Source: Phyllosticta citribraziliensis
Taxonomy: Eukaryota
Length of the DNA: 64,000 bases
Assembly (NCBI RefSeq): GCF_038025025.1
Contig: NW_027117348.1
Span: 744,001 to 808,000 of the forward strand
Reading direction: 5' to 3'
Positions 8,663 to 42,274 of the stretch are shown here, piece by piece; positions within the stretch are counted from its first letter, which is position 1, and each line of letters starts with the position of its first letter. The notes under the pieces were generated by a model. The model was not told the origin of the DNA, ran no database searches, and saw only the letters and a program-made list of their open reading frames with translations. The position numbers and the translations under genes are program-made.

Positions 8663-8989
8663 AGGGTGTAGAAGGCGGGTTTGGTGTTTCACTGCCCAGG
8701 AATCCGATATTCCGAGGGCTCCATAGATGGCAAGTTGAAGAATGGACGTGTTCGAAATGGATGCATATTTCCAATGAATAAGTAAGATGAGGGAAGATGG
8801 TCGTCCTGAGGTGATGTCGGTACGTTGCAAGGGTGCATGTGTGGGTTCCAGTTCGGTCGGCACTCAACCGTCAGTCGAGTCATTCGGCATCAACATCCGC
8901 TTCCTTCTGACTCTTGCATCCAGATCTTTTACTATCCCGCCTGTGACTCGCATCCCATTCTCCCTCCGCCCACCTTGCTCCCTGGTGTT

Positions 8990-10291: not shown

Positions 10292-10971
10292 AGCTTCGTT
10301 GCACGATGACTTGAAAGGAACAAGAGATACCCTGTCGCAAGACTTACCACACGACCAAAGAACACATTGACAGTCAGGAGAGGGATGGGCTGGTTATCAA
10401 GTCAAAGCTACTGCGAGGATTATTCCGCAGGTTAGCAAACAGTATCGGCTTACCAAGATGGCAGGCATTATCCAGAGCCTTCGCCGTGTCGATGCTGGCA
10501 GAAGACAGATTCAACCGGTTGGATTGATGGGTTTTGAATCTTCAGGTTTTGGGCGTGAAAGCGGGCTCCTGTCGACTTCGACTTCACTCTCGTGGTAGGA
10601 ATTCATTAGACCCGACTTTGCAAATATTCCGATTGCATCTTTTCATTCAAAGAGCTGTACCTTGAGGAACCTGAAGAGTTGGAGCAAGATACCGAGTGTG
10701 TCGTTCATTGACCAATCCGATGGACTGAGCCAACCAATCAGAAGCGCGCAATCATCTCCTGGACCGCACAGTGCTTCGACCTCGCGCACTCTCCCGATCG
10801 TTCTCTGCTTGTATACTATTGCCTTTGCAAGCTCAGGAGGCGGGAACCGATTTATCACATTGGTTGATAAAGACCCCCCTCACGCGATAAGGACCAAACC
10901 CCACTGCATTCAACAACCTTTTTCTTCCGCTCGTATCTTTCGTTCTACAACACCACTCCAGCACCTTCACC

Positions 10972-11994
10972 ATGACGACCAAGTACTTCAGCAAAGAATC
11001 CACCATCGACGTCGATGCGCCGCCTCCATCGACCACCAATGCCCTCACGCTCGCCTATCGCACGTTTGGCGACCCAAAGAACCCCGCAGTCTTCATCCCC
11101 ACGTGCTACTGTGGGCGTCTTCCCAACACCATGACGTTTCTCTACGAGCCCGACAAGGACGGCAAGGCGCCCGTGTTGGCCGACTATTTCGTCATCACTT
11201 GCGGGCTGCTCGGCGGCAGCGAGTCCAGCTCGCCGTCCAACACACCCGCAGCCATCCGCGGGCCCAAGTTCCCCAGCGTCTCGTACGAGGACAACATCCG
11301 CATGCAGGTCGCGCTGTGCAAGGCGCTCGGCGTCGAGCGGCTGCACGCGTACATTGGCTTCAGCATGGGCGGCCAGCAGGCGTACCACATGGGGGTGCTG
11401 TACCCGGAGTTTGTCGAGCGCATCGTCGTGGTGGCGGGCTCGGCGCGCACGTCGTGGCACAACTGGTCGTTCCTCGAGGGGCCCAAGGCGGCGCTGACGA
11501 CGGCCGTCGACTGGCACGACGGGCACTACACGGCGCCCGTGACGCGCGGGACGGCGGCGTTTGGCCGCGTCTACGCGACGTGGGCGCTGAGCCAGGCGTG
11601 GTTCCGCGGCAAGCAGTGGGAGGCGGCGGGCTGCGCGTCGCTCGACGAGTACCTCGTCGCGCACTGGGAGCAGCCGATGCAGACGTGGGACGCGCACGAC
11701 CTGCTCGCCATCATGGATACCTGGCAGCGCGGCGACGTGTCGGCCTGCTTCCCCGAGGACAAGGGCGACTTGGCCACGACGCTGGGCCGCGTCCAGGCAA
11801 AGGCGCTCATCATGCCCGTCCGCACCGACCTGTATTTCCCGCCCGAGGACAGCGAGGAGGAGGTCAAGCACCTGAAGCACGGCAAGCTGTGCGTCATTGA
11901 GAGCATCGGCGGCCACATGACGGGCGGTGGTGGGATATACGAAAAGGATAATGCCTTCATGTCTGAGCAGATCAAGAATTGGTTGGAGAACTAG
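10972..11994 (+). CDS. Homoserine O-acetyltransferase (MetX)-like alpha/beta hydrolase
   Basis: Intronless 340-aa ORF. Motifs LAYRTFG, SSSPSN, FPSVSYEDNIRMQ, nucleophile elbow IGFSMGGQQA, DLYFPP (catalytic Asp) and GGH (catalytic His). Confidence 0.85.
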   Translation: MTTKYFSKESTIDVDAPPPSTTNALTLAYRTFGDPKNPAVFIPTCYCGRLPNTMTFLYEPDKDGKAPVLADYFVITCGLLGGSESSSPSNTPAAIRGPKFPSVSYEDNIRMQVALCKALGVERLHAYIGFSMGGQQAYHMGVLYPEFVERIVVVAGSARTSWHNWSFLEGPKAALTTAVDWHDGHYTAPVTRGTAAFGRVYATWALSQAWFRGKQWEAAGCASLDEYLVAHWEQPMQTWDAHDLLAIMDTWQRGDVSACFPEDKGDLATTLGRVQAKALIMPVRTDLYFPPEDSEEEVKHLKHGKLCVIESIGGHMTGGGGIYEKDNAFMSEQIKNWLEN

Positions 11995-17885: not shown

Positions 17886-19793
17886 CTAGTGAATCATACC
17901 GCTCTTCGCCATCTCCTCGACATAATGCACGTACCTGCCGGCACTATCGCGCCTCAGCCCCTTGCCCCACTTGACCATGAGCAAGAACGTCAGACACTGC
18001 GCCAGGCCGACGAAGGCGGCGGTAATGAAGCACTTTTCGAGCCCCATGCCGTCGACCCACGGCGTGATTCCGTAGCCGATGGCGAAGCTCATGGTGTTGC
18101 GCACGAGGATGACGGTGACGATGCTCTCGCCGCCCAGCGCGCGGTAGCTGTCGATGGCGTACGCGACGCTCAGCGTGATGCCGACCGTGTTGGTGCACGC
18201 GATGGCGCCCGCCGCGAAGACGAGCCCGAACCAGTGCACCGAGTGCGCCGCGCCGACCCCCCACAGGATGAGCCCCGCCGGCAGGATGATGAGCGACGGC
18301 GCGAAGAGCCACAGCCGGAACTCGGGCTCGAGGATGCCCCCGTTTTTGCGCGCCCGCCACAGCACGAAGCGGTCGCCGACCGGCCCGGTGTAGAAGGCGG
18401 CGATGAAGACGCCGATGAGCGGCGAGAGGTACGACAGCCCGACCATGGACGCTTTGAAGCCGTAGTTGGTGCCGAGGATCAGCGACGTGGTCGCGTTGAG
18501 CACGTTGAACCACACGAGGTTGGACCCGTACGTGAAGCCGGAGAAGAAGATGACGGGGAAGGTTGCAAAGATGAGCGGCCGCCGCACCATGCCGAGCAGC
18601 TCGTTGGGCTTTTCTAGGTCGGCGTGCTGCCAGAGCTTTATCTTGTCGAGGTAGTTCTTGCGTTTCCGAGGCATGCTGAACTCGTTGGGGGTCTCGCGGG
18701 AGTGGACGGTAGGCATGGTGACCTTTTCTGGGTCTTCTTCTCTCTCAGGAGCTGGAGTGGTGATGCCAGGAGTCTCGGGCGGCGTGCCCGTGGTTGACCG
18801 CCGGTAGTTTGTCTCCTCCATGAAGAACAGGAGGACGAAAAATCCAATCAGGCAAAAGATGGCGCTCCAGTACAGAGTCCACTGCCATCCCTGACCATCG
18901 TTGATGAAGCCGCCAAAGACTGGCGCCAGATAGTTGCTGCCCGCCAGTAGGAGAGCGTAGAGGCCAAAATATCTCCCCCGCTCATGCTGGAAACTGTCAT
19001 GCCGTTAGTCCAAAACTCGAGGGACGAGTGTTCCATGACTCGACGCAGTTAAGATTTCTTCGATTACTTGATTAGGAAGGAGAGATGGCAAGGATCCACT
19101 GCATCATTCCACAGGGATGAATCGTGCTTTTTTCATCCGAAAGACAAGGATGGTTCTCTGAAAGAAATGGTCACACATACTAAATGTCTGTTATCGACGT
19201 CTCGCAAAGACTCTCGATAGGGGCCAAAAGGAAGCCCTGTAGAATCTTGTTGGCAATCCACTGGCCATTGCTCCTGGTGTACGGTGCCCAAAACTGCACG
19301 GCAGCGCCAGAAAGCATGCTAAACAGGTACACGGGCCTCTTGCCGTACTGCAGAGCAATGGGCTGCCAGAACAGACAGCCCCAGCCCGCAAACAGAAACA
19401 TGTATCCGGTGCCCGCATTCAGGTCACTCAGAGTCAGGCCCGTGTCATTGCTGATGGGCTCGAGCACCGAGTAGATGATGGCGCTGTTGATGCCCGTCAT
19501 GAGGGTGTAGACGCTCATGCAAAAGGTGCTGAGGGCCTTGCGCCTCGGGGTCCAGTTGAGCGGGTCGTCTGGATCATCCGAAGGAGCGGGAACCAGGACA
19601 ATGTCGTGATTTTTGGCGTCTCCGGCATGTTTGGCCCTCATGGTGCCCTTTGAAGTGTGAGTGCTAACTTCAAAAGAGGTCAAGAGCAACAAACCTGCAG
19701 GTCGACCAGATGCACGGTGCCTGGGACTGGAAGGACGCCCGGTTCCGCTTCCGCTTCTGCTTCCGCTCCGTGCATGCTTGCGACGGGAGCCAT
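17886..19793 (-). CDS. MFS transporter, HOL1-like
   Basis: Motifs VPGTVHLVD, LVPAPSDDPDDPLNW, LQYGKRPVYL, DIYFQHERG, EETNY and LEPEFRL. Introns 19648..19694 and 18994..19180. Confidence 0.9.
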
Positions 19794-21435: not shown

Positions 21436-22892
21436 CTACTCGATGATAAAGTTCCAGGCGAGCTGCGCAATGACCTGTGCGGGCAAGTCGACAACACGGT
21501 AGAAAATCTCGGCCCCTGGAATCACCGTGACCAGGGACACCAAGAGACAGAGAATGTTGCTTGCCCCCGTCGGCCAATTCTTCTCATGGCGCAGGTGCAG
21601 GAACAGCTTGATGCCAGCCGTGTATATGATGATCGACTGCACGAGAAAGTAGCCTTGACGACTCGTTAGCACGCTAGAATACGAAGGGCTCGGCGCCGAA
21701 GGCCAAAAGGGGTCAACTCACTAAACGAACGTCGACCAAGGTACATGAAGACGGGCTGCTTGAAGATGTTTTGCACGACTTCGTACGTCTCGAGCATGAG
21801 CATAAAGGCGACGATGATGAGGTAGTTGTCGTCGCGGGCCTGCGGCTGCGTGAGGTCGGCTCCGTCGTTGAGACCTCCAGTCGTGTACAGGCCCGTGTGG
21901 GCGCGAATCTCGGCGTTGGCGAACGAGGGTCTCCAAGCAACCCACAGGTACTCCATGATGAAGCCAGCCAGGGCGATAACGGCGGCAATGGGCCAGGTGG
22001 GGCAACGCCAGCTGCCCACATACGGAACCGTCACCTTGACGCCGCGCCTCGATTTGGCCTTGAAGTCCATGTTGATGACGACGTCTGCCAGGAGGAGACC
22101 GGTGGCCGAGTACCAGGCCCACGATTGCACCCACCATGCGGTGAGGATGTAGAGCACAAAGGCCTTGACGCGCCACGAGTTGCGCGTATACGGAATGCAG
22201 ATCATGGACATGTAGACGGTGTAGCTCTGCAAGAAGACGAGGCTGACGATCCACAGCGTCTGGGAGGGGTATGCCAGGCTGGCCTTTTGCTTGGCAAAGT
22301 CGTGGACGACCCAGAAGATTTCAAAGAGCGAGTTGAAAAAGTTGAGGAAGTTGGGCAAGTCCTCCGGGGTAGCAACGTTGGTGTGGCCCGTGCGGGTCCT
22401 GAAGTCGTCAATGTAGGCGGTCCCGATCTGGTTGAGGATGAGGGCGGCCATGCCGAATGAGACGGTCGTGGGGATCCAGAGGCGGATGCCGCGGCGGAAG
22501 AGCTGGCTGGCGACGACCTGGCGAGTGGGATTCTTCAGAAAGGGCACGCAAATGGTGCGGGCGGAGAGCAAGACGATGGACGAGTAGATGAGCGACTGGT
22601 TCCAGAAGAGGACCGAGAGGACCTTGCGGAGGATGGTCTGGTAGTAGGGGCCATTGGTGACGTCCGTGTCCTTGACGGCGGTGGGCGCGAAGACGGACAG
22701 AAAGACCCAGAGGAAGGACAGGATGACCAGACAGCCGCGGACGCCAACGAGGTAGTCATGCTCGGGAGCGGGCGAGGTCGACGAGCGCAAGGCGGTCAGG
22801 CGGTGGACTGGCGACTTTTCCTCGGGCTTGATGGACGACGAGGCGTCGAGGTCGACGGCTTCGCTGTTGACAGTGGCGACGGGGAGGCCCAT
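21436..22892 (-). CDS. Acyltransferase-3 (AT3/OafA-like) multi-pass membrane protein, about 462 aa, with divergent motifs
   Basis: Motifs HDYLVGVRG, RRGIRLWIP, LWIVSLVFLQS and YLGRRSFSYFLVQ correspond to the AT3 motifs lDGLRG, RxxRL, LWS/T and GriSYSlYLvH. Intron 21654..21721 (GTGAGT...CTAAC...AAG) gives an open frame to a TAG ending at 21436. Confidence 0.8.
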
Positions 22893-23599
22893 GGTGGGAG
22901 GAAGTTGGAGGTCGGGGTGGCTGCTGAAGCCGGCGGGCAGCAGGAAGGAGCTGCAGAAGTGAGTGAGTGTCTGGTGGTGAGGTGCAAGGGAAGGAGTGCT
23001 CACCGCTCATGATGTGGATGTTCTTTAACAGGTGCCACGCCCGGACGGCCCAGCTCCAGGGCGGCGTGCACGGCTCTGGGAGGGTCGCGTTGCGGCGCAG
23101 TCGACACGGCTGCAGTCATCATGTCCGGATTGTCTGTTTTCCAGTTCGCTCGACCCGTTGGACGTACAGGCAGTGTACAGATTAGGGTATGTGTGTATGT
23201 GCATGTACGGACGCGGCACGCATGGCGGCGCCGATGGATTTGGTTTTAGAGGCCAGCAGGACATGATACATAGCGAATACTGTGGGTGGGCAAAAGCAGG
23301 CCCCAGCAGGTGCAGAAGGAAGGCCTGGCTTCGGCCTCTGAGGGTGGGAGGCCATGTCCAGAGTCTGTAAGGGCAGCCGAGGGCAACACAGACGTTGACC
23401 TGCATGACAGGCGGGCAGCCAAGTACATGTGGACTGCCCTCGGGCACTCGACTCTCTGCGAACAGACCCAGCAGCCAGGGCCAGGGCCAGGGCCACCAAG
23501 TGCGGTGCGGTGATGGGCATGGAAGGGCGGGGAGGCCTAGATGAAGCGTCTGTGCGTGTCGCCGTCGTCGTCGTCGTCGTCGTCGATAACCACGGCACC

Positions 23600-26500
23600 T
23601 ACCTTACGGCATGGCATGGCATGGCATGGCTTGCCGTGGCTGTCGTTGCAGTTGCAGTTGCAGTTGCAGTTGCACGGCCAAAAGCACATGGTTTGGGACA
23701 AGCGACCGAGATGACATGCCGAAGCCACCTCACGACGATATGTATGTACATGTAGGTACACATTGCAGTGGCCAAAGGCGGGAACGCGTCGAGCAGCGTT
23801 TCAACCTTCAGCCCATCGGCCACGCCAAGGTACTGCGCTCCATCGATACAAGCTCTCTCGGCATGGCTGAAGACAATCCAACGCCAACGGGAGCATGCTC
23901 CTCGGCTGCTGTGTCGCCCTCGTCTCGTCCATTCTCCTTCCATGTCGTCTCGTGGGCCATGGATCAAGTCTCAAGTCCGGAAACCTGCTGCAAGCCCGCC
24001 GTTGTCCTTTGTTTTTGCTCCATTCCTTACCGCCACTCGGTGTCTCTTTTTTCTTTTTTTCCTTTTTCCCTTTTTTCCTTTTCCTTTTTTCCCTTTTTCG
24101 CCTGCCACCTGCGCCTACCCTGCAATCAGCTGCGTCCAGAAATTGGAACAAAAGCCCATCTGGTGGGTCGCTGGCGTTTCACGGCCCCTTGGATGAGTGT
24201 AACCCTGCTGGAGATCCACGAATGCCGTGTCCAGGCACTTGCTAGGCAGGCACCTTAGCTAATTAATCAAAACACCACCATCATGTCACACGGCCGCCAG
24301 AGAGCGTGGGAGCGTTGGCTTGGCAATTTGACCGCTTGAACAAAACGGCCGCCTGTCTTGGGCTTGCCTATCGACCACGACGACGTGAGAAACCCCCTTT
24401 TCGCTCTCTCGGTCGCACACGGACGGCCTGGCAGGCGACGGCGACAACTACTCGGAGCAGACGTGTCGACGTGAATCGTCACGGAAAACGTCATGACAAG
24501 GTTGGTCGTTCCGACGGGCCAGACAAAGGTCCCTGTGATGCTCAAACCGCGGGGATGATCCCGTCAGCCGCAACTTGCAATCCCGCTCGAGCGTCCTCTT
24601 TTCTATTTTCTCCCTTTGCTCTTTTTTTCTTTTTTTTTTTTCCTTCCCTTCTTCCCTACCTTTCACGAGGCCTCCACTGCGGGGAGCCTAAGGTTCCTTG
24701 CAACTTCAAGACAAAGACAGGCGACATGACCGTCGCGTCCTCACGTCACAACCGTGTGGCAGCAAGGAAACTTGGCCGCCTCGAGGACGACCGACGCTCA
24801 GCTCCACCCGTGCGTGCTTGATGCCACACGAGGTTTTCGTCACAAGGGCGCCCACGTCGACAGATACCGTATGTACACGTTCCGACCGATATAGTGCTAC
24901 CACGGAGACGTCGTGGCAGGAGGGGGCGAGGGAAGTCCATCGGCCGTGTCCGCAGCACCGTTGCCATCGACCTGCCCGCAGTGGTTAAGCAGAGGTGATC
25001 CAGAGGATCCGGAGGAGATCCAAACAAAGTCCAGACGAGATGGCGCGGTTGATCAAGGGCGATGCTCGATGGATTGTGGGTGGTTGATCAACAGAGCAGC
25101 TCATCATCTGCCAATGCCGTGCCAGATGGACAGCAGCATCCACAACACTATTGGCAAATCAGCAAAATGCTGCGAGGGACAGAAAAGACATGTTCGCCTT
25201 TGCCTTTGCCACTATCGCATCGCATCGCATCGCATCGCATATCCCGTGCCGTGCCTGTACTGCTGCTGCTGCTGCACCGTATGTTGCCCAATGCGACCGA
25301 ACGACCAACTCACAACACCACCAGCTCCCACCAGCTCCCACAACATGGCTTGCGGCCAAGTCTCCGCCTCTTCCTTTGTTTTCCATCATCTGCTGCAACC
25401 ACGGCGAACATGCCCTGAGACATGACATCACCATGATCTCCGGCGGTGCTTTAGGTTGGTCCATCCTCCTCCACTCTGCTTGCTCTCGCTTCTCGGTGCG
25501 TCCAAACTCGTCGGTGCCTCCGTGGGCCCGCGCCCCTCTCTTCGCTCCCACAGGCCACAACTGTGCGATCGTCCCGATTCGGCAACGGAGCCACCTGGCT
25601 ACATGCCTAGGAAGGCAGCCGACGTCGTTTTTCGGCCTGTCCGCACACGGGCGGTTCCTCGGTGGGCGTGGACGAGGTGGTGGTGATGGGTTGTGGTTGG
25701 GTCTGCCTGGCTACATTACAGTAGCGGGCGTCGGGCGGTTCCTGGGCCGCGCCGCACACCCGCCAACCCACCTCACCCACCTTACCAGTTGCTCGACGGC
25801 CGGCACAACCCGTTGGACCAACAAGCAAGCAGCATGGAAGCGGGAAAAAACAAGCCAGAAGCCCTCTCGTTGTTGCTCACCGGCAACGCCAGTCTTTGCT
25901 CTCTTTTCTCTCCCTCACACACACACCGCCATCCTTCCTCCACCGTGTGCTCCGTCTCATCTCTCTCGCTCTCTCTCTCGGTCCGCTCATATCGCCAGCG
26001 CGCGCTGTACCTTGGCAGGGACAAAAACTGACAAAAACTGGGCAAAGCGAGATTGCGCCCATCTGGCCGGTGGGCGCAAACACACGCGCCGGGCCGGGGC
26101 GCTTGCTTGCTTGCTTTCTTTCTTGCTTGCCTGCCTGCCTGCTTGCCTCCCGCGGCGACCAGGAACGGCTCGCACGCACGCCATCATCCATTACTGACAT
26201 GGATCGAAGGGCAACGGAAGCCTCGTGGAATACCTAGTTACCTGAGGGGAGATGAAACTGACGACCGGACGACAGGCAACATGGATATCCAAGCGAGCGA
26301 GCGAGCAACAAGGCTGAGATTTGATTTGATCGTCGGCAGCCAGCATCGACTTTTTTGATTGATTCCGTACCTACCGGTACCTCTAGATGACGGACTGGCC
26401 GAACCGACTGACCGACCTGCCGACCGACCGGCTGCCCAACCACAGTGCCACTGAGACGAGACGAGACGAGACGAGACGGGCCAGCCGGGAAAAAGCAAAA

Positions 26501-27718
26501 GTGGAAATTTCTCTCTTCTCTCCCATGCCACGCCATGCGATGCATCTACCCACCACCACCACCACCATAATCCATATACCTCCGCTGCCGCCCGCCTGCC
26601 CGCCTGCCTCGGCCGGGCTAGAAGGAATGTGAGCGGGCGGACGGACGCATAGAAGCCGTCCGTGGCGGAGAGTAAATGCGTGCGTGGGTGCGTGGCCGCC
26701 GCCGAGCGAGCATGCTGCATGTCGGCGGGGGCTAAGGTACCTAGCTACATAGTTCAGCCTACCAGGGCCGAGAGCACGGTACGGTACATCCATCCATCCA
26801 TCCATCCCTCCATCCATCTACATCCATTCATCATCCCACCCATCTCGTCTAAAATCCCATATCGATGTGGCCCGCAGCCGTGCCTGCAGTAGCGGCCGCC
26901 GGCTTGGCCTACCCACACAGCCTAGACCGCGAACCTAGGCCTGTCATCTTCATCACCACCACCATCACCACCATCATCATCAAGCATCAAGCATTGTTGC
27001 CGACGGAGCAGTGGGTGGCAGCGCCGGCGGCGTAAATAGACACATACCCTGGCGCTTGCCATGTGCGCAGCCGCTGCGCATTAGCAGCAGCGTTGCCACC
27101 GGCGCGGGCGCCGCCTTTCTCGGTTGATGGAGGCGAGCGGGCGAGCGGGAAAAGTCTAAACGCAGACGCAGCGTCAGGAACGGTGGCGGCGTTGGCCCCC
27201 AAATGCATACCCTCGTGTCGCGGCGGCGGCGGAGGAGGAGGAGGAGGAGGCGGTACAGTACACGCATGGGTTGTATTTCTGTCCGTCAGTCTCTTCTCTC
27301 CCGTTTAGACCACCACGAACGGGCGAGATGGGTCCCTACCTATCTGTCAACTGACCAACCGACTGACGGGCCCTCCTACAGTCCGGCATGGCCTCACAGC
27401 AGCAATCGCCTCTCGCGCCTTCGACTCTAAATCAAGCCACTCGCTCCATCACCACCGCCCGTTTGCCAACCGCCGCCGCCCATACGAAATTAAGGTAGCA
27501 ACCTTATTTCCAACGGCCTACCACCTCCCTGTCCCCCCCTGCCCTGCCCTACCCTACCCTGTCCTCCTGTCCCCTGTCCCCTCTCTCAATTTTTTTTCTC
27601 CCCTTCTTTCCTTCTTCTGCCCAAGCCTTGCAAATGACCACAACGTGCCAGCCAGCAACAGCGCACGTAATTTGGCGACCGGGCTTGGCAAATTGCGCAC
27701 TGCGGCGGGTGATTGTGG

Positions 27719-27750
<32 letters not shown>

Positions 27751-28970
27751 ACAAGGAAGGAAGGAAGGGAAGGGGACCTAGGACGGCGGGCCGGGCCTAA
27801 GTCTAGGTACTAGGGTAAGTCAAGTTAAGTCGGGGCGGGAAGACGGGCGACGGGCGCCGTCGGTACATAGGTAGGTAGACATTTCCAAGCAAGCGGTTCC
27901 TGGTCGTGGGTTTATTTGCGTCCGTCCCTACCTGCGTTCCTTGCCATGGCGTTCGGGGCTATGTACGGTACGGTACGGTACGGTATAGCAGCACGGGCGA
28001 GCGGGCATGTAGGTGGGCGTGTCTGCAATGTGGCTATCCGCGCTGCATGGTAGGCAGCGGAGGCAGACGGCGGAGGCAGGCAGACGGGCAAGGCGGATGA
28101 CTGCCTTACCAGGTAGGCGAGAGGGAGGGAAAGGAAAGAAATCAGGAATAAACGAGACGTGCGTCTGACGTGCGGGCAATGAAAAGGGTAGGTAGTTTTG
28201 TGGAAAGGAAAAGGAAAGAGGAGGGAAGGGGAGGTGGCATTTCGCATCGAATTGATTGATGATGGAGGCTCACTAAGGTATACGTAGAAGGGACATGCCT
28301 CGGTTTCTGTCCGTCGCTTGCTCGCTTAGTGGTTTAGTAAGGGCTGGCTGGTCGTATGCGACGAGTGGCAAGACAAGCAGCCAGGTAAAGTAGGAATGAA
28401 ATCAAAGCGAGAGGCGCAGTCACGCTACGCTACGATAAGCTGGCCGTCGGTGGGGCGGCCGTTGCTTGCTTGCTTGCTTACTGACATGGCATGTTTCGCT
28501 GAGTTGTTGCGGTGTGATGTGCCAAGTAAGGTATGTATGTGCATGGATAGTTAGGTAGTAAGGACAGAGGTATGTATATGTATGTGCATGTGTATGTGGT
28601 GGATGGATGTGTTGACAACATGTGAGACAGCTGGACAACAGAGAAAGACGGGCAGGGCAGGCAAGAAGATCAAGAAAGCCAGATGGATGCAAGATTAACC
28701 ATCGCATGCATTGCTTGCTAGTATGCAGTGTAGTGCAGTGCGGGCGCAACGCAGCTGTATATGTAGAAAGACAGACCGACAGACCGATAGACACACACAT
28801 CTATGTACTCTTTCATCATTCCCTCGAACAAGCAAGAAAGAAAGAAAGACGCCTCCAGAATCCCTCAGTCAGACAATGCCGCCAGCAAATATTCCCCCCA
28901 TCCGTACGTGGTGGACTCGATTGACTCCCACCCATTTCTATCCCGGTCCTTTATTCCCATAGCATGACAC

Positions 28971-29009
<39 letters not shown>

Positions 29010-29520
29010 AGACAGATGCAACCACAAACTCAAATCTCTCTCTCTGGCGGGTAGTGAAGTGCTTGCTCTTTGGCAAGGGCGGCCGATCCGATCTGATCCA
29101 GCTCCCAGCCCCAGCAAGCAGTGCGTTGCCTGAAAAACCAAGACAGGTAGGGAGGTATGTAGCGCAACGCGGGGACGGCAGCGTGTCGCATCGTGTCGTG
29201 TACCGGCAGCGGCAGGCAGGCAGGCAGACAGATAGACAGACCGACCGTTGTTTGTTGTCCGGTCGAGTTGCACGTCGGTCGATTCCGTGCTGCCATGCGC
29301 AAATTTCCCCAGCCCACCCGGCCCCCAACCATGTCGCTCGCACAGGTAGGTGGGTAGCACCTGAAAACTAGTGCGAGTGTTGTGTGAGAAAAGAAACAAA
29401 ATGCAAAGGAAGAAGGCGATTGACAAGAAGGGTAGGTTTTTCGAAAGCCATTGAGAAAAGAACACATTTACAAGAAAGAGCAACGGCAGCAGCAGCAGCA
29501 GCAGCAGCAAGCTCTGCTTT
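23600..29520. repeat. Dense simple-sequence-repeat region: (GTTGCA)n, (GGCAT)n, (ATCGC)n, (CATC)n, (GAGAC)n, (GGC)n, (CAG)n, and A35 at 28974..29008
   Basis: Read directly. No credible coding frame. Confidence 0.8.
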
Positions 29521-29919
29521 GCTAGCGCATACATGCATTCGGTGCGCGCGGATGCAGGGAAGCGACTGCAATCATAAAGAAGCGGAAAGGATGGTTGGTC
29601 GTGGTGGTGATGCATGCATGCAAGGCGCAGGGGCTCGACGGGTTGATGCACCGTGGTCGTTCTGGTGCAGCACAACGTGCATCCAGGCCGGCAGCCAAGC
29701 TGAAATGTTTTTGGGCCGACGGATGCCCACCTTGCTGACTGCTGCTGCTGAACTGCAAGTGGTGCTGCTGCTGCCATCTGCCATCGCCCGTTGGCACGAC
29801 AGTGGGTTTTTTTTGTGCGCACAAAAAAAGTTCCTAGTCGGCCTGGAAATGTAACTCGGGACTGCAACTGCGCGCGCTCCGGACCAGATTGGGTGCGCAC
29901 ACAGCTCCTTTGCAGCCGC

Positions 29920-31519
29920 TTACGACCGCGCCGTCGGATTCCAGTTGCTGTAATTGACTAGCTGGCGGGCGTTGCCGTAGATGCCCATGGTTGCATTCAG
30001 CACCAGATAGAAGGGGTAGAAGAAGGAAAACATGACAATCATGCGGCGATTGACAAATTCGGACCGAACCGTTGCCGTAATCCACAGAGTGGCAATGAGG
30101 CAGAGCACCCTGTAATTTCGATTGTCAATAGACTGTCCTTGGCCTGCGCAAGGGACGGAAGACTCACGTGATGACGAAGAACCAGACGGAGACGGGGTAC
30201 TGGAACCAGATGAGCTTGGCCAGGCCCATTGGGTTCTTGGGCCACTTTGTAACGATGAAGCCGGCGACCATGCACGTGTACTGGGTGACGAGATAGTACG
30301 AAAGCTCGCGAATGGCCAGCAACTGCATGAGACCAATGCGGACCTTGATGCGGCGGGGCGTTCCGTCAGGAGACTTGTTGTAGGCAAGCTTGACGTGCTT
30401 GACGCTGGCCTGGGTCCAACCTTGGGCCCAGCGCAGACGCTGCTTCCAAAAGGACTTGAAGGTGGTGGGGGCCAGCTCGTACGAGACGACATTCAAGTCG
30501 TGGACGGCTTTGGCGCCGCGCGAAATGGAGCGCAGAGCCGAGTCAATGTCTTCAGTGAGCATGTCGCCGTCCATCTTGAGGTCGCGGAGCAGAGAGCCAC
30601 GCCAGTAGCCGTTGGAGCCGCAAAACAGACCAAAGTCCCACATGAGGGCGCGGCCGGGGTGGGAGACGGCGTAGATCTTGTCAAACTCGACGGCAATCAT
30701 GCTGGCAAGCACGCACTCGTCAGTGTTGAAGACGACGCAGCGGCCTTGGACAATGTCGACCGTGTTGTCCTGGCAGAAGCGTTCGGCGGCCCAGCGGGGA
30801 CCGTAAGGGTGAGGGTAGTGGTCACAGTCGTAAATGGCAATGACGTCGGCACCCGTGTCGAATGACAAAAAGTAGTTGAGGTTGTCGGCCTTGCTGGTCG
30901 AGTTGGGGACTTTGATGACGCGGCATTGGGGGTACTTGTACTGAAGGTCGCGCAGCTGCGTCTCCAAGGGCTCAATGGGCTTGGGGGTGTTGTAGAGAAG
31001 GTTGATGCGGATCCTGTCGACGGGGTAGACAATCTTGGTGAGGGCATGGAGGGCGCGGTCCATGATGATGTCCTTTTCGTTGGGCAGGTAGGCGACGATG
31101 AGGATGTCGATCAGAGGCAGACTGGCGTCCGGGGTGGGGAAGGTCCAATCCTTTTCCTGGACCTTTGTGACGGCCTTGCGAGAGTCCATGACGGGGCCTA
31201 GCGAGAGAAAGGCCTCGATGACGGTGGAGGCGGAGATGTAAAAGTTGGTGGCCAGGTAGAAGAACCAGAAGATGCCAATGGCCTTGTGGGTGGCGACCAT
31301 GTAGATTGAAATGGAAAAGACAAAGTAGGACAAGACGAGGGCAAAGGGCGTCCATTCGGTGACAAAGGCCGAGAGGCGCTGCAGCAGAGGTTGTTTGGCG
31401 GGCGCGGCAGGCGGAGGAGGGGGAGGGGGAGTGGTGGAAGCAGAGGGACTGTACGAGACCTTGGGACGGTCATCGTCAATGTTGACGGAGAAGTCTCTGC
31501 TGTCCGAGGGCGACGACAT
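29920..31519 (-). CDS. Processive membrane GT2 glycosyltransferase (cellulose/glucan-synthase-like), about 513 aa
   Basis: Two N-terminal TM helices. Motifs LIVAYLPNE, KADNLN, YDCDH (DxD), GSNG, LTEDID and KQRLRWAQGW (QxxRW). C-terminal TM helices end in WNPTARS. Intron 30110..30167. Confidence 0.92.
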
Positions 31520-32474
31520 GGTGGGAGGGTGGACGTGGAGGGACAGACGTGAACGACAGAAATGAGCCCAAGAGCTCTGGAGTGGAGGATATAAGACGCG
31601 TAACGAGCGAGAATGGGGAGGGAGGGAATTTTGAGAGAGAGCAGAGTAGAGAAGATATCGCCGGCGGACCAGGGTGGGTCGGCTGGAGTACGGTGGCCGT
31701 GGGCGTGGGCGTGGAGTGGAAGTGGAAGTGGATGGACATGGACATGGACCTGGACATGGACCCGGACCCGGACGCGTTCATCGTGTGGCCTGGCTGCCTG
31801 CCTGCCTCACGCCCCCGGTACATGTACCCATCCCATCAGCAGGGCAGGGCAGGGGCACGACGCAATGCCTAGGTACAGGTAGGTAGCAATAATATCAGAG
31901 AGCCAGCGAGGGAGGCATGATCTGCATTGATCGGGACATGGTGTCGACTCGGCCATGGCTGTCTGCCCAAGTCGAGGGCGATGGACGTCGCCACAGTCTG
32001 AAGTCCAGTCCGGTCCGGTCCAGCCCCGTCCATGCTGACGGCTGCAGCGGTCTTTTTTTGTCTCGGAGGCCTTGAAGTGGAGTGGATGAGGAGGGAGAGG
32101 TGGTGTTTGTTCCTGGGTGACATGTGCCAAGAGTCGGCCCGACACCACCTCGTCCGCGTCCGCTGCTGTGGAACCCGATGCTCGCCCCCTGTCCTGTCGC
32201 TCTCCACCCCACCCACCTCACCTCCACTCCCCCTCCCCCTCCATCCGTACCGTACCTGACAAGCCTGCACTGCACATGCAGGGACCGGGGCATGGCAGGG
32301 CACCCGGGGCCTGACAACACCCCCCCCATGCCATGCCATCCATGCCGCAACGCTCTTTTTCCATTTGCGACTGACTGCTTCCCATCTCGCCAGCTCGCCG
32401 CCCGCTTTTTGTACTCCAAGGCGCCTTCCGTTCTTCCTGTCTTTTCCCAGTCGTGTCGTTCGCTTTCTCCCATC
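31520..32474. promoter_or_regulatory. Putative bidirectional promoter between GT2 and GH16-AT3
   Basis: The two genes are head-to-head, 955 bp apart. Degenerate hexamer repeats (GTGGAA/GGACAT/GGACCC) lie at about 31715..31773. Confidence 0.5.
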
Positions 32475-35400
32475 ATGTTGCTCCCAAAAGAGCTCCCCTC
32501 CCTGGCTGGAGCTGCCCTCGTGCTGCTCCTGTCCCTCTCACACCTCTCTGCCGCCCAGTCCAGCGATTGCTCTTGCGGCTTCTACGACGATTCCACCGGC
32601 AACCTCTTTACCGAGTCCCTGATTCAGTACTTCAACGAGACGTCTGATTTGAGCGAGTTCGTCATCGAGGACTTTGAGCACAAGGTCGAGAAGAGCTGGA
32701 ACAGCAAGTACCGCCAGGGCGCCGCCGCCGACAATGTCGTCGCCAATGGCACCTCTCTCAACCTCTACTGCGACCCCTCCACCAGCCAGCACCTCGTCAA
32801 CGGCGCGAGCATCAGGTCCAAACGCCGCGACATTCTCCATGGCACCTTCCGCTCCTCCATGCGCGGCCCTCAGTCGGGCATGGGCGGAAGTTCCATGACC
32901 ATGCGCGTCCTCTTCAACGAGACCGAGTCTTTCGAAATGAACATGATGAACACCGACTCGTACTCGGACGCCTGGGTAAACACCCTCATGGAGGCTGAAT
33001 GGCCTGACCGCTCCCTCGGCATCAATTACACCGTCCTCGGCAACAGCTCCGTCACCAATGGCACCGTCTGGCCCTACGACTTCGTCGAGTTGCGCATGGA
33101 TTGGACCGAAAAGGAACTTCGCTGGTGGGTTGCTGGCAACAACAGCCGCAATGCCACCAAAAAGGAAGACGGCAAGGTTCCCCTCACTCCTGCTCCCTTG
33201 TACTTTCGCCATTGGTCCACGGGCAACACCTACACCATGGAGGGCCCTCCGTACTTCCGCTCAGCGGCCAACGTCGCCTGGTTCCGTGCCTTTTTCAACA
33301 GCTCGGCCATGACTACCGAGCAGCACGAGGAATTCGACCAGCGCTGCACCATTCAAGACGCCTGCTCCGTCGATGACATGAGCCTCCGCCTCATCTCAAA
33401 CTACTCGTCCAACTCCACCGTCAAGTACAAGCATCACGAATCCAAGGGAGGTCTTTTGACTGCGCCCATCTACATCTCCGTCATTTGCGTCTGCTTCTCG
33501 ACCCTTCTCCTCGTTCATGCCTTCCTGCTCAGGATCCGTAGCAAGCAAACCTCGGGCCATGGCCACGGAGCAAGCCAACCCAAGAGCGACTCTGGCTCCG
33601 AGACTGACCGCACCTCGTCGCCAGTCCCTCCATACCAGTCGACCGAGGGTAGCTTTGTTGCCTCGAGCGGCGTCACTCCTCACCAGACTAGACCGTCGAC
33701 GCCCGAGAGGAGAATGGCAGAGGGATTTCCCCGCAGACCTGAACTTACTTCTTACGGATCTTCTGGCCCCTCGACTCCACTGCCACGCTATCAGAGTACA
33801 GAGTACATGCCGCGCTACACGAGCACAGAAAACTTTGGAAGGTACGACGAGGATGTCATCAGCCCTGTCTCTTCCACGCACACGTTGCATGGCACCCCTT
33901 CGACGCAGACTCTACATGGCGCGCCCGACTCTGGGGCCTCTTCCATCAGGAACCCAGTCGTCTACACAAACTCGGCCCTCGTGTCCGACTATGCGCTCTC
34001 AGGCTCTGCTAGAGACTCGGCCCAGACACTCGTTCCAAAGACCCCTCTGAGCCCATTCTCTTCATTGCCCAAGTCGCCAACCGGGCAGCCGTGGTCGCCC
34101 AAGAGCAGAGAAAAGGTATTCGGCGAGGCCAAGGTCAGGGAAATTCACGAAAAGGAGCAAAAGGAGCACCCACTGCGTACGACGCAAAACGCCATGACGG
34201 ACAGCAAGGTCGACAAGATCCCTACCGCAAAGAAGCAGCGTGTCGACTACCTGGCCGGTTTGGTCGCCCTCTGCTCCCTCTTTGTCACCCTCATCCACTT
34301 TCACTTGACCTACGTCCCTGCAGTCGTCATTCCTGGTGCTCCTCAACACTACAAGAGTGAGCTGTGGGCGCAAAAGCTCATTTCTCCATTCATCATGAAC
34401 CAAATGTGGCTCGGAGTCTTTTTCACCACGTCGACTCGCTTCTTGTCTGCCCGCTACTTCCGCGAGGGCAAATTGGACGTCATTGCGGAACGCGCCGTCA
34501 AACGTACGCCTCGTCTCTTGATTCCCGTCACTGCCATGGTGCTGTTCGAGTACTTTTGGATCGACGTGGGCGCCACCAAGTACCTGGAATACGTTCCCTC
34601 CATCTCGTGGTCGACTTGGGCCTACGTCTCCAAGTTCCCCGACCCCGGCCACTTTATCAGTGAGATTCTGGAGCTGATTTACCTGATCCCCAACGCCGTC
34701 CCCCAGGTCACGTACAACTACTGCACCGGTGTGCTGTGGACCATTGCGGTCCAGCTGCAAGGTTCGTGGGTCGTCTTGCTCGGTGCCATTCTCATTCGCG
34801 AGATCAAGACGCCGTGGAAGCGCTTTGGCTACTACCTCTTTTGCGTCGTCAACAACTGGTACGCGCGCAACTGGGGAACCTTCTTCTGGCTTGGTCTCAT
34901 GCTCACGGATCTGGACATTACGTACAAGTGGAGGAAATTCCTCTACCCCCGTCCGGCTGTTTACTATCCTCTCATCACCTTCTGCGTCATGATGACTTGC
35001 GCCGGTTTCCTCATGAACCTGCTACCGCAGTGGTACACGTGGAACTTTTCGACGCACGAAAACGACATCCATCCCGACCAGGAGACGGGCAAGCCGGTCG
35101 GCGAGACGGAGCGCGGTGGATATCCCAACTACTACGAGCCGCGCTTCAACATGCTGCTCTTTGCCGTAGGCATGCAGGCCATCGTGGAGCTCAGCACCGT
35201 CGTCCAAAAGCTGCTCTCGTTCAAGCTGCTGGTGTGGGTGTTCCCGCACATCTTCACCATCTACCTGATCCACGGCTTCATCTTCTGGAGCTGGGGCAGC
35301 TGGGTGCTGTACGAGCTGGCCAAGCTGTCGCTGCCGTACTGGATCATGATGCTCGTCACGGGCCTGACGTCGTACGCGTGGATCTTCCTCTCGCTCCCCA

Positions 35401-35648
35401 TCATCACGCCCGCCATTGAGATCCTCGGCCGCGACATTACCATCCACGTCTGGGAGGAGGCCGTCGAGAAGCCCCCGCCTCGCCGCGCCACGCTTTTCCC
35501 CTTTGCCAAGGACTACCTCGGCGTCGAGGAGTCGGCCGTTGCAGCCGTCACTGGCAACACGACGGCGGCGACGACGGCGGCGCCGAGCGAGAAGGATCGC
35601 CCGCTGAATGAAAAGGGCGGCTACCTGGATGAGCGCAATGTCATTTGA
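32475..35648 (+). CDS. Fusion protein, 1057 aa: signal peptide, GH16-like domain, TM helix, S/T/P-rich linker, AT3 acyltransferase domain
   Basis: Intronless. Signal peptide MLLPKELPSLAGAALVLLLSLSHLSAA. GH16-type motifs DCSCGF, RRDILHGTFRSSM, ELRMDWT..ELRWWVAG and HWSTGN..MEGPP. TM helix PIYISVICVCFSTLLLVHAFLL. AT3 motifs RVDYLAGL..IHF, KRTPRLLIP, GVLWTIAVQLQGS and IYLIHG. Confidence 0.88.
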   Translation: MLLPKELPSLAGAALVLLLSLSHLSAAQSSDCSCGFYDDSTGNLFTESLIQYFNETSDLSEFVIEDFEHKVEKSWNSKYRQGAAADNVVANGTSLNLYCDPSTSQHLVNGASIRSKRRDILHGTFRSSMRGPQSGMGGSSMTMRVLFNETESFEMNMMNTDSYSDAWVNTLMEAEWPDRSLGINYTVLGNSSVTNGTVWPYDFVELRMDWTEKELRWWVAGNNSRNATKKEDGKVPLTPAPLYFRHWSTGNTYTMEGPPYFRSAANVAWFRAFFNSSAMTTEQHEEFDQRCTIQDACSVDDMSLRLISNYSSNSTVKYKHHESKGGLLTAPIYISVICVCFSTLLLVHAFLLRIRSKQTSGHGHGASQPKSDSGSETDRTSSPVPPYQSTEGSFVASSGVTPHQTRPSTPERRMAEGFPRRPELTSYGSSGPSTPLPRYQSTEYMPRYTSTENFGRYDEDVISPVSSTHTLHGTPSTQTLHGAPDSGASSIRNPVVYTNSALVSDYALSGSARDSAQTLVPKTPLSPFSSLPKSPTGQPWSPKSREKVFGEAKVREIHEKEQKEHPLRTTQNAMTDSKVDKIPTAKKQRVDYLAGLVALCSLFVTLIHFHLTYVPAVVIPGAPQHYKSELWAQKLISPFIMNQMWLGVFFTTSTRFLSARYFREGKLDVIAERAVKRTPRLLIPVTAMVLFEYFWIDVGATKYLEYVPSISWSTWAYVSKFPDPGHFISEILELIYLIPNAVPQVTYNYCTGVLWTIAVQLQGSWVVLLGAILIREIKTPWKRFGYYLFCVVNNWYARNWGTFFWLGLMLTDLDITYKWRKFLYPRPAVYYPLITFCVMMTCAGFLMNLLPQWYTWNFSTHENDIHPDQETGKPVGETERGGYPNYYEPRFNMLLFAVGMQAIVELSTVVQKLLSFKLLVWVFPHIFTIYLIHGFIFWSWGSWVLYELAKLSLPYWIMMLVTGLTSYAWIFLSLPIITPAIEILGRDITIHVWEEAVEKPPPRRATLFPFAKDYLGVEESAVAAVTGNTTAATTAAPSEKDRPLNEKGGYLDERNVI

Positions 35649-39893: not shown

Positions 39894-41187
39894 ATGCTGG
39901 CTCGGAGCTCTCACCGGACGGCCCAGGTTAGCCTGCCATTCCGCCGCCGCCGCGCGAATCAAATGCTGACGCGCAGCCTTTCTTCAGACCCTCCTGCGGG
40001 GTGCCACGCCGGCCACGCGCACCTTTGCTACCGTCCAGTCCGACATCTTCAAGCCCACCAAGTTCGGCGGCAAGTACACGGTCACCCTGATTCCCGGTGA
40101 CGGTGTTGGTGCCGAGGTCTCCGAGTCGGTCAAGCAGATCTTCAAGGCCGACAATGTGCCCATTGAGTGGGAGCAGGTCGATGTGAGCGGCATGGACTCT
40201 GGCAACAAGCAGACCGAGGAGCTCTTCAGGGAGTCGATTGCCTCGCTGAAGCGCAACAAGCTGGGTCTCAAGGGTATGCGCCCCCACGGGCGAACGGAAC
40301 AAGCAAACGCTCAGACACTGCTCTAGGTATCCTCCACACTCCCGTCGAGCGCTCCGGCCACCAGTCTTTCAACGTTGCCCTGCGCCAGGAGCTCGACATC
40401 TACGCCTCGATTGTCCTGATCAAGAACATCCCCGGCTACGAGACCCGCCACAAGAATGTCGACCTTTGCATCATCCGTGAGAACACCGAGGGCGAGTATT
40501 CTGGCCTCGAGCACCAGTCTGTCCCCGGCGTCGTCGAGTCCCTCAAGATCATCACCAGGGCCAAGTCTGAGCGCATTGCCAAGTTTGCCTTTGCCTTTGC
40601 GCTGGCCAACAACAGGAAGAAGGTCACCGTCGTCCACAAGGCCAACATCATGAAGCTCGCCGACGGTCTCTTCCGCAACACCTTCAAGAAGGTCGCCGAG
40701 GACTACCCCACCCTCGAGACCAACGACATGATTGTCGACAACGCCTCGATGCAGTGCGTTGCCCGCCCCCAGCAGTTTGACGTCATGGTCATGCCCAACC
40801 TGTACGGCGGTATCCTGTCCAACATTGGCGCCGGTCTCGTCGGAGGCCCCGGTATCGTCCCTGGTTGCAACATGGGCCGCGAGGTTGCCGTCTTCGAGCC
40901 CGGCTGCCGTCACGTCGGTCTCGACATCAAGGGCAAGGACCAGGCCAACCCTACCGCTATGATCCTGTCTGGCTCCATGCTCCTGAGGCACCTTGGTCTT
41001 GACGACCACGCCAACCGCATCTCCAAGGCCGTTTACGATGTCATTGCCGAGGGGTAAGTTTTTTCATTGACATTTACCAAACGCCTGCTAACAGTCCGAC
41101 AGTAAGACGAGGACGCACGACATGGGCGGCAACGCCTCGTCGCAAGAGTACACGCGCGCCATCCTGGCCCAGATGGAGAAGCAATAA
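39894..41187 (+). CDS. IDH1: Mitochondrial NAD-dependent isocitrate dehydrogenase subunit 1
   Basis: Presequence, then KFGGKYTVTLIPGDGVG, IIRENTEGEYSGLEHQS, HKANIMKLADG and FEPGCRHVGLDIKG. Introns 39927..39987, 40274..40326 and 41054..41102. Confidence 0.96.
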
Positions 41188-41394: not shown

Positions 41395-42274
41395 CTAAAA
41401 AGCAGTCTTTCTCCTCCTGCCCGTGTATTTGGAGCTGGCCTTGACAACCTTTCCTTTCCGCTCCATCTGGTCCTTTTTCTTCATGATCCAAGCCTTGCTG
41501 CCCTTCTTCGACTCTGCCTTCTTTTGTTGCCGCTTTCTCATCTCAACAACATCTACGTTGCTCATTCCCTTGACGACACCAGTAATGTCGCCCTCCAGCT
41601 CACCACCACCGACGGTCAGGACAAGGTACACTTTGACGCTCTTGGTGCCGGGGTCGTCCTCGAGCAGACCAGCGCCAAACCCTGCCTTCATGGCGGCCTC
41701 GGCAATCATCTTCTTTTGCTGGTCGTTCTTGGGGTAGAATTGGCACACAGCCCGGCCACCTCTGCGCAGACTTGCGTACAGTCCATTGAAGAATCGGGAT
41801 AGCCGACCGAGGGCAGTCTCATCGGCGCTCTCCGCGTTGCACAGCCATTGCACCGCACTGATGCTGATTGCCGCGTCAAAAGTACCCGCCCTGAACGGAA
41901 CGCCCTGGCCTGCGTCTGCGAGGAAGAGGTCGCCCTCGACTTCGCGCTCCAGCGCCACGCCCAGCATGCTGCCCGAAATGTCCATGCCAACCCACGTGTG
42001 TGGGCCGCCTTCGTCGGGCTCCACGGCGGAAAGGATTTGTCCAGAGAGGCCGGAGCCACAGCCAACGTCGAGAATGAGGGATGGGTGCTTGAGGTCTAGC
42101 AGCTCGAGGGCGCGGGTCGTCATTTTGGCCTGGATGTTTTGGATACGTGACGACGTTGTGTACTTCTTGGACTCGAGGTCATTGTAGAAGAGGTCTGGCG
42201 GGCTTGCAGAGGGTCAGAATGGTGTGTCGGAGTGCGCAGCGGAAGTCTTACAGAATGTCTTCGGGGCGCGACAT
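41395..42274 (-). CDS. BUD23: 18S rRNA (guanine-N7) methyltransferase Bud23
   Basis: Motifs MSRPEDILPPDLFYND, ILDVGCGSGLSG, ISISAVQWLCNA and C-terminal SKYTGRRRK. Intron 42203..42251. Confidence 0.95.

Follow-up and report, generated by a model that had tools for sequence, protein, structure and literature searches.

A conserved ascomycete trio of GT2 synthase, AT3-fold protein and GH16-like–AT3 fusion, found in Phyllosticta citribraziliensis, as a candidate module for synthesis and O-acylation of an extracellular beta-glycan

Gene clusters are known for only a few matrix polymers of fungi. The Aspergillus galactosaminogalactan cluster combines a synthase with modifying and glycan-binding or hydrolytic proteins for a matrix polymer, and relies on an alpha-synthase of family GT4 together with a deacetylase and active hydrolases. 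In bacterial cellulose synthesis, BcsA is accompanied by BcsB, a membrane-anchored, non-catalytic carbohydrate-binding partner. In staphylococcal icaADBC, for poly-N-acetylglucosamine (PNAG), a processive GT2 enzyme is clustered with an AT3 protein (IcaC) that has been proposed to O-acylate the polymer during its export (PMC9558356). Fungal non-chitin membrane GT2 enzymes are represented by Tft1/CelA and Cps1/Cps2, and Tft1, which has been expressed in Komagataella phaffii, is reported in a preprint as a proven (mixed-linkage) glucan synthase (bioRxiv 10.64898/2026.09.17.752320). Here we describe three consecutive genes in a 64,000-nucleotide stretch of Phyllosticta citribraziliensis DNA (the window; contig NW_027117348.1, positions 744,001 to 808,000), encoding a processive GT2 synthase, a stand-alone AT3-fold membrane protein and a protein in which a GH16-like domain is fused to an AT3 domain. 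An earlier note, made from the sequence without database searches, had proposed that this locus makes and O-acylates a beta-linked cell-surface or matrix polymer. Our analysis agrees with that proposal as far as conserved linkage and co-regulation support it, while the nature of the polymer and its acylation are what we infer: the trio is probably a conditionally expressed synthase and O-acylation module for an extracellular or cell-surface beta-glycan. In its mode of action it would resemble icaADBC or a Bcs module, but it does not qualify as either, and it has in addition a pseudo-GH16–AT3 fusion and an AT3 pair with a divided motif. Unlike the galactosaminogalactan cluster, it has no homologue of the GT4 alpha-synthase, the deacetylase or the active hydrolases. 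The features of the locus are listed below, with lengths in amino acids (aa), TM1 denoting the first transmembrane helix of an AT3 domain, and positions counted in the window.

21436..22892, minus strand: stand-alone AT3/TmAT-fold membrane protein, 462 aa; exons 22892-21722 and 21653-21436; R52 (the TM1 Arg) and RxxR present, TM1 His absent
21654..21721, minus strand: inferred intron of the AT3-fold gene, GT...AAG; the spliced C-terminus agrees with database protein P0241
22893..29919, no strand: spacer of 7.0 kb between the AT3 and GT2 genes, rich in simple repeats; no gene found
29920..31519, minus strand: processive GT2 synthase, 513 aa; exons 31519-30168 and 30109-29920; YLPNE, D231xD, FCGSNG, T322ED, Q360RLRW
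30110..30167, minus strand: 58-nt intron of the GT2 gene, which contigs of all four runs skip
31520..32474, no strand: divergent promoter region, in which the GT2 contig of run X1 ends and the fusion contig starts (weak hint)
32475..35648, plus strand: fusion protein, 1057 aa, single exon; signal peptide, pseudo-GH16 domain, one transmembrane helix, disordered linker, AT3 domain
32568..33374, plus strand: GH16-fold domain, about aa 32-300, without ExDxE; putative extracytoplasmic glycan-binding or scaffold role
34227..35474, plus strand: fusion AT3 domain, approximately aa 585-1000; H608, RxxR (R677/R680) and H933 kept, TM1 Arg position Val/Thr

The outer stop codons of the trio are at 21436 and 35648, and its proteins are 92-95% identical to Phyllosticta database entries. 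Support for the GT2 and fusion gene models came from four runs, two recorded as RNA, from a relative about 90-95% identical, and two presumed to be RNA; the runs that confirm the GT2 intron also cover the fusion gene. As stated earlier, GT2 and the fusion are divergently transcribed, from the minus and the plus strand respectively, with 955 nt between their start codons. The GT2 contig of run X1 stops at 32082 and its fusion contig starts at 32217, which is a weak hint since contigs cannot define transcript starts. The statement that no credible gene separates the three also held. Four long open reading frames (ORFs) in the spacer gave no Pfam match, the G+C content at third codon positions was at most 0.70 for the spacer ORFs as a whole (0.76-0.84 for the trio genes) so that none reaches the trio level, and the spacer had no tblastx match among 111 loci and no Rfam match. 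In 28 related loci the AT3 and GT2 genes lie about 1-2 kb apart, vs 7.0 kb in the window; the spacer, microsatellite-rich and with a poly-A run near 28974-29008, is several-fold longer than those of relatives.

Unlinked orthologues in other genomes had been named beforehand as a possible refutation, and the trio was found to be linked across several ascomycete classes. A metagenome scan confirmed 103 stretches, of which the best 80 were returned; one was dropped as a distant paralogue and the other 79 formed 44 clusters. These loci were taken as fungal from identity, and the search patterns were built from, and favour, close orthologues. Within the best 80 of 103 stretches, both partners were present along with GT2 in 16 of the 17 non-redundant clusters with at least 4 kb on each side (25 of 26 loci); in the exception, L030, the AT3 gene is present and the sequence ends 2 kb beyond, consistent with a truncated contig. 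All three genes were seen in 21 clusters, in the order fusion-GT2-AT3, as in Phyllosticta, in 15, fusion-AT3-GT2 in five and AT3-GT2-fusion in one, and in each of these orders GT2 is head-to-head with one partner. Consecutive accessions for all three were found in Sarea resinae, Aplosporella prunicola, Botryosphaeria dothidea, Diplodia seriata, D. intermedia and Lasiodiplodia theobromae, and Lachnellula suecica has the three within one 15.4-kb contig. A fourth conserved gene was sought at the metagenome loci, and no other ORF family was common to more than three clusters. The dropped paralogue (L074:3456-5018), a fungal GT2 of 36% identity, is flanked by 3.5 kb upstream and 10 kb downstream in which neither partner gene occurs. 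Second GT2 copies occur in Coniosporium tulheliwenetii and in Lachnellula suecica.

The co-expression that was to be expected of such a module was seen in Botrytis cinerea. Here BCIN_06g03780 falls in the 90% cluster of a stand-alone AT3 homologue, and BCIN_06g03780, 03790 (PF13632) and 03800 (PF00722) have the same order and orientation as in Phyllosticta, as given in a supplementary table of PMC11409189. In that table the three fall together, with log2 fold changes of -5.61, -5.65 and -5.05 (33- to 50-fold down) and similar replicate patterns, from counts of thousands to 60-260. The neighbour 06g03810 rises (+5.31), and no row is given for 06g03770; the experiment as tabulated has 1,176 down-regulated among 3,292 genes (PMC11409189). 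The trio is highly expressed in 48-h PDB shake culture. A second dataset (PMC6908482), in which the tabulated mean counts are as low as 22, 41 and 133, shows no concordant change of the trio and is uninformative or mildly against co-regulation. On one informative dataset, the cluster thus looks switchable. These data also bear on the explanation that the genes are neighbours by inherited gene order alone, with unrelated functions. The order fusion-GT2-AT3 does account for 15 of the 21 clusters, and search patterns made from close orthologues favour related fungi; however, the trio is kept in three orders while ordinary neighbours are lost, it spans several ascomycete classes, and its regulation is opposite to that of the next gene. 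Inherited order alone is thereby largely refuted and scarcely credible. The trio occurs widely, in plant-pathogenic and endophytic fungi, black yeasts and lichen fungi, it is strongly regulated, and with BCIN_06g03780-03800 it has named genes in a tractable species.

The claim of a processive GT2 with DxD, TED and QRLRW motifs was borne out. The window protein has DCD at 231, TED at 322 and QRLRW at 360, it passes PF13632 (61.6 bits, cut-off 27), and the catalytic motifs including QxxRW are intact in 120 of 120 listed homologues. As for the Bcs system, BcsA cellulose synthases are the solved structures most closely related to the GT2 (E 4e-13), its FCGSNG segment aligns with BcsA FFCGS, and some relatives are fused to BcsB, to which the pseudo-GH16 fusion would be an analogue. 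Unlike BcsA, it is much shorter and scores 77.2 bits with the BcsA/CelA model TIGR03030 (cut-off 699), and its partner has a GH16 fold together with AT3. The PgaC/IcaA model TIGR03937 gave 68.6 bits (cut-off 422) for P0001, a protein 93% identical to the window GT2. A PNAG-like beta-1,6-N-acetylglucosamine polymer with O-succinylation, as the product of a fungal icaADBC equivalent, would fit the pairing of a GT2 with an AT3 protein, as IcaA with IcaC, and PgaC_IcaA is the top NCBIfam model for six of the seven other GT2 relatives scanned. The Phyllosticta GT2 nevertheless scores higher with CelA than with PgaC_IcaA and is far below the cut-off of the latter, the FCGSNG segment and the pseudo-GH16 domain point to a glucan, and no deacetylase gene is conserved at the loci, where no IcaD-like gene was seen either. 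The trio further differs from icaADBC in that the AT3 motif is divided between two paralogues, of which one is joined to a pseudo-GH16 domain, and in that the host is a eukaryote; we regard a PNAG-like product as very improbable.

Among the fungal GT2 enzymes, the B. cinerea orthologue of Tft1 is listed as Bcin04g06040, with Bccps1 as Bcin05g06910 and Bccps2 as Bcin03g03750 (PMC9500679). The GT2 of the cluster is BCIN_06g03790 and has another gene number than all three, which by gene number, and so only indirectly, speaks against its being Tft1, Cps1 or Cps2. In the preprint text the residue numbering of Tft1 reaches at least 558, vs 513 aa in the cluster GT2. A description of the cluster was not found in the full-text literature, a coverage that leaves out most subscription journals and the supplements of the Tft1 preprint, in line with the earlier view that this is not a recognised characterised fungal pathway. 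The only mention of a member was the B. cinerea GT2, listed as a regulated gene. Two published candidates concern other genes, namely a two-gene cluster of W. dermatitidis, CHS-like plus UNGD (PMC4059230), and a survey of chitin synthases (PMC5122149).

The nearest non-fungal relatives of the GT2 are bacterial, with 29-43% identity in a profile search of 1.84 billion representatives and a prokaryotic genome scan. In the genome scan they were mostly cyanobacterial, and a search of the ESM Atlas gave only ascomycete clusters and one cyanobacterial GT2 cluster. In a Pfam scan of 32 proteins, the domains joined to GT2 relatives were receiver/GGDEF in five, TPR in four (one with a PgaA barrel), BcsB in two and AT3 in two. 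The fusions to BcsB, to TPR/PgaA barrel and to AT3 tie the GT2 clade to secreted polymers and acylation. P0423, P0433, P0436, P0444 and P0453 represent an apparently uncharacterised GT2 clade with YLPNE, in which the synthase is joined to BcsB or to arrays of TPR repeats, in one case together with a PgaA-type barrel, as if synthase and export were on a single chain. P0413 and P0422 are bacterial-type relatives fused to AT3, as GT2-AT3 and PAS-AT3-GT2, and a Phormidesmis relative (L108:2153-3610) adjoins a canonical AT3 gene. With the fungal AT3 profiles, the canonical AT3 domains of P0413 and P0422 gave no match (best E 0.002, two sequences searched), and transfer of the whole cluster from bacteria is accordingly unsupported. 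A fungal-type partner gene was present in none of 31 prokaryotic loci. In a quick GT2 tree, unfinished and with a midpoint root, the named fungal sequences including one chytrid fell within a set of 28 rows (Shimodaira-Hasegawa-like approximate likelihood-ratio test, 96), and no donor or direction of transfer was drawn from it. The chytrid sequence, P0373 of Rhizophlyctis rosea, has intact motifs.

The NodC/NodX pair is a model for a small acylated product, and the trio could in the same way make an acylated oligosaccharide, a cyclic glucan or a glycolipid. AT3 genes are present in fungal natural-product clusters (PMC12423673), the GT2 is short with three strongly hydrophobic segments by Kyte-Doolittle, and expression is conditional, all of which would suit such a product. 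The loci nevertheless have no fourth conserved gene such as a polyketide synthase, a transporter or a tailoring enzyme, the relatives are fused to parts of polymer export, and QxxRW is kept throughout, and we find a small product quite improbable.

The fusion protein was modelled with a GH16 domain, one transmembrane helix (329-359), a disordered linker (361-584) and the AT3 domain. The model topology would place the GH16 domain outside, with TM1 of the AT3 domain beginning in the cytosol. The earlier description as an extracellular GH16-like and AT3 protein stood as regards the fold and the AT3 match; the Pfam GH16 hit is below the cut-off (19.9 bits vs 22). The beta-jelly-roll fold was clear, with 269 Foldseek matches at E 0.001 or below, among them 1gbg at E 2.4e-10 (template modelling score 0.70 by target), and it resembles beta-glucanases. 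The catalytic motif of GH16 is ExDxE or ExDxxE. Neither form was found between residues 140 and 170 in any of 121 fusions, and an alternative register with the consensus AWVGTFVNGEF is likewise without it. As predicted from these residues, the domain is a pseudo-enzyme and not a hydrolase, and because the catalytic motif is lost a glycan-binding or scaffold role may be assumed. The curated B. cinerea table (PMC6908482) carries the fusion gene as an unclassified GH.

The AT3 domain of the fusion passes PF01757 (33 bits, cut-off 31), whereas the exons of the stand-alone gene in the window gave no Pfam AT3 match and only three of 30 family members matched PF01757 at E 0.1 or below. The stand-alone protein was therefore assigned to AT3 from its alignment with the fusion domain (HHalign probability 98.9, E 3.5e-17; 22% identity, hence paralogues) and from its fold, and not from Pfam. 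Foldseek with its model returned nothing at E 0.001, and a wider structure search returned HGSNAT (Z 13.3, root-mean-square deviation 4.1 over 239 aligned residues, and Z 12.6) and GWT1 (Z 10.0) ahead of the next match at 5.6; helical bundles may often reach a Z near 13, and all three top matches are TmAT members. The AT3 membrane protein of the earlier note is thus upheld by fold and homology and lacks the Pfam match.

Members of the AT3 family carry two motifs, RxxR and R/K-X10-H (PMC9558356, PMC12423673). Like other members of the AT3/TmAT superfamily (OafA/OafB, HGSNAT, GWT1), both domains have the fold and RxxR in the first cytoplasmic loop, with R677 and R680 in 121/121 fusions and, in the stand-alones, R134 in 121/121 and R137 in 110/121. 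A His (H332 in the stand-alone, H866 in the fusion) is common to both, and several His of the fusion are invariant. Unlike in the superfamily, R/K-X10-H is split between two paralogues modelled as a heterodimer. In TM1 of the stand-alones R/K is present in 121/121, and +11 is occupied by Val, Thr, Ile or Cys rather than by a column of His; in the fusions H608 is present in 120/121, and the Arg position (-11) is Val in 95 and Thr in 23, with no R/K seen. This register was confirmed by the HHalign alignment of both domains. On residue conservation, then, the motif is divided, with its Arg retained in the stand-alone and its His in the fusion, and the two incomplete domains probably work as a pair. 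The position of the fused domain is also unusual, as the pseudo-GH16 domain is N-terminal, vs the C-terminal SGNH domain common in bacterial AT3 fusions (PMC9558356).

A heterodimer of the two AT3 domains, modelled with the orthologue P0241 as the stand-alone chain, scored 0.77, while the best of three controls scored 0.00. As high a score was obtained for 51 of 78 solved complexes and for 2 of 108 mismatched pairs (39 of 65 and 2 of 126 among eukaryotes). Contact agreement between runs was at least 75%, and the predicted local distance difference test of the partner was at least 81. Both chains contribute equivalent helices to the interface, with 665-675 against 122-132 and 765-782 against 224-241, as would be expected for a heterodimer derived from a homodimer. 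Several points weigh against this model and against acyl transfer by the pair. HGSNAT is a solved dimer, and likeness to it may contribute to the score. The controls did not include a homodimer, and paralogous chains are a case outside the tested range of the method; the modelled complex comprises the two AT3 domains only. Interface residues exceed the others in conservation for the stand-alone (p = 0.00035) and not for the fusion (p = 0.65). Moreover, the canonical Arg and His share one helix of one subunit, such that simple complementation in trans is not obvious, and with the full canonical motif in neither domain acyl transfer is uncertain.

Possibly, the AT3-fold proteins no longer acylate and serve as a membrane scaffold or export aid to a polymer-making GT2, as was once proposed for IcaC. 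The complete DxxR-X10-H motif is in neither protein, and for IcaC itself the review text leaves transporter vs succinyltransferase open (PMC9558356). Further, the fusion is retained beside a dead GT2 in some fungi. In a clade of fungal GT2 relatives that includes Neophaeotheca and Teratosphaeria (P0385, P0441, P0417, P0377, P0449 and P0450), DxD, TED and QxxRW are lost in all six aligned members, and two dead GT2s are in merged gene models with the GH16-AT3 fusion (P0516 and P0415), which indicates that they still adjoin it. The finding suggests that GT2 has a structural role within a complex, or that an active copy lies at another locus, and it shows that the partners can be kept when the GT2 next to them makes no polymer, a further point against a synthase and acylation module. 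On the other side, the nearly invariant RxxR in both proteins, the invariant His of the fusion and the shared H332/H866 look like conserved acyl-CoA chemistry, and GWT1 is described as an active TmAT that also is without the canonical residues (PMC12423673). Loss of acylation is in our view unlikely.

Our preferred reading, a module of synthase and O-acylation, would then operate in three steps. The GT2, judging by its intact motifs and its relatives, would polymerise a UDP-sugar, most likely glucose, and pass the chain across the membrane. The membrane-anchored pseudo-GH16 domain, with its observed fold and lost catalytic residues, would bind or guide the chain on the outer or luminal side in the manner of BcsB. 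The stand-alone and the fusion AT3 domains, between which the motif is split, would form the modelled pseudo-symmetric heterodimer and could move an acyl group from cytosolic acyl-CoA to the chain. It speaks against certainty on all three steps that no biochemistry or mutant for the trio was found in the literature.

As to the polymer, the alignment of FCGSNG with FFCGS and the beta-glucanase-like pseudo-GH16 domain favour a glucan. Linear beta-1,6-glucans are reported from Umbilicariaceae lichens, Guignardia (Phyllosticta) citricarpa and Lasiodiplodia theobromae (PMC6268985), and members of the locus are present in all three sources, as the fusion in Lasallia and P. citricarpa and as all three genes in L. 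theobromae. Pustulan is described as partly acetylated (PMC7389562, PMC7164778). A linear, O-acylated beta-1,6-glucan of the pustulan type is therefore our lead candidate, a tentative one. The locus is, against this, far more widespread than the reported pustulan producers, which makes the match weak, and Kre6 is reported to account for beta-1,6-glucan in A. fumigatus conidia (PMC12482176). It is a speculative possibility that the trio is a Kre6-independent machine for secreted linear O-acylated beta-1,6-glucan, such as pustulan and the glucans of P. citricarpa and Lasiodiplodia, in which a bacterial-type GT2 acts with a lectin-like pseudo-GH16 domain and an obligate heterodimeric AT3 whose degenerate subunits divide acyl-CoA binding and acyl transfer between them. 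The cluster makes two questions testable, namely which enzyme is behind the linear beta-1,6-glucans that are secreted and behind their O-acetyl groups, and if a heterodimeric AT3 with a divided motif can work as an acyltransferase. Surface glucans in acylated form could influence how a fungus adheres, holds water and is recognised by a host.

Beyond the trio, the AT3 gene is followed in the window by a gene for an MFS transporter at approximately 17889-19750, minus strand. It is in the same place only in L012 and L016 and is retained in only one cluster. Other neighbours with Pfam matches lie at 8810-10288 (dihydrouridine synthase), 10891-11991 (alpha/beta hydrolase), 40167-41054 (isocitrate/isopropylmalate dehydrogenase) and 41398-42213 (WBS-type methyltransferase).

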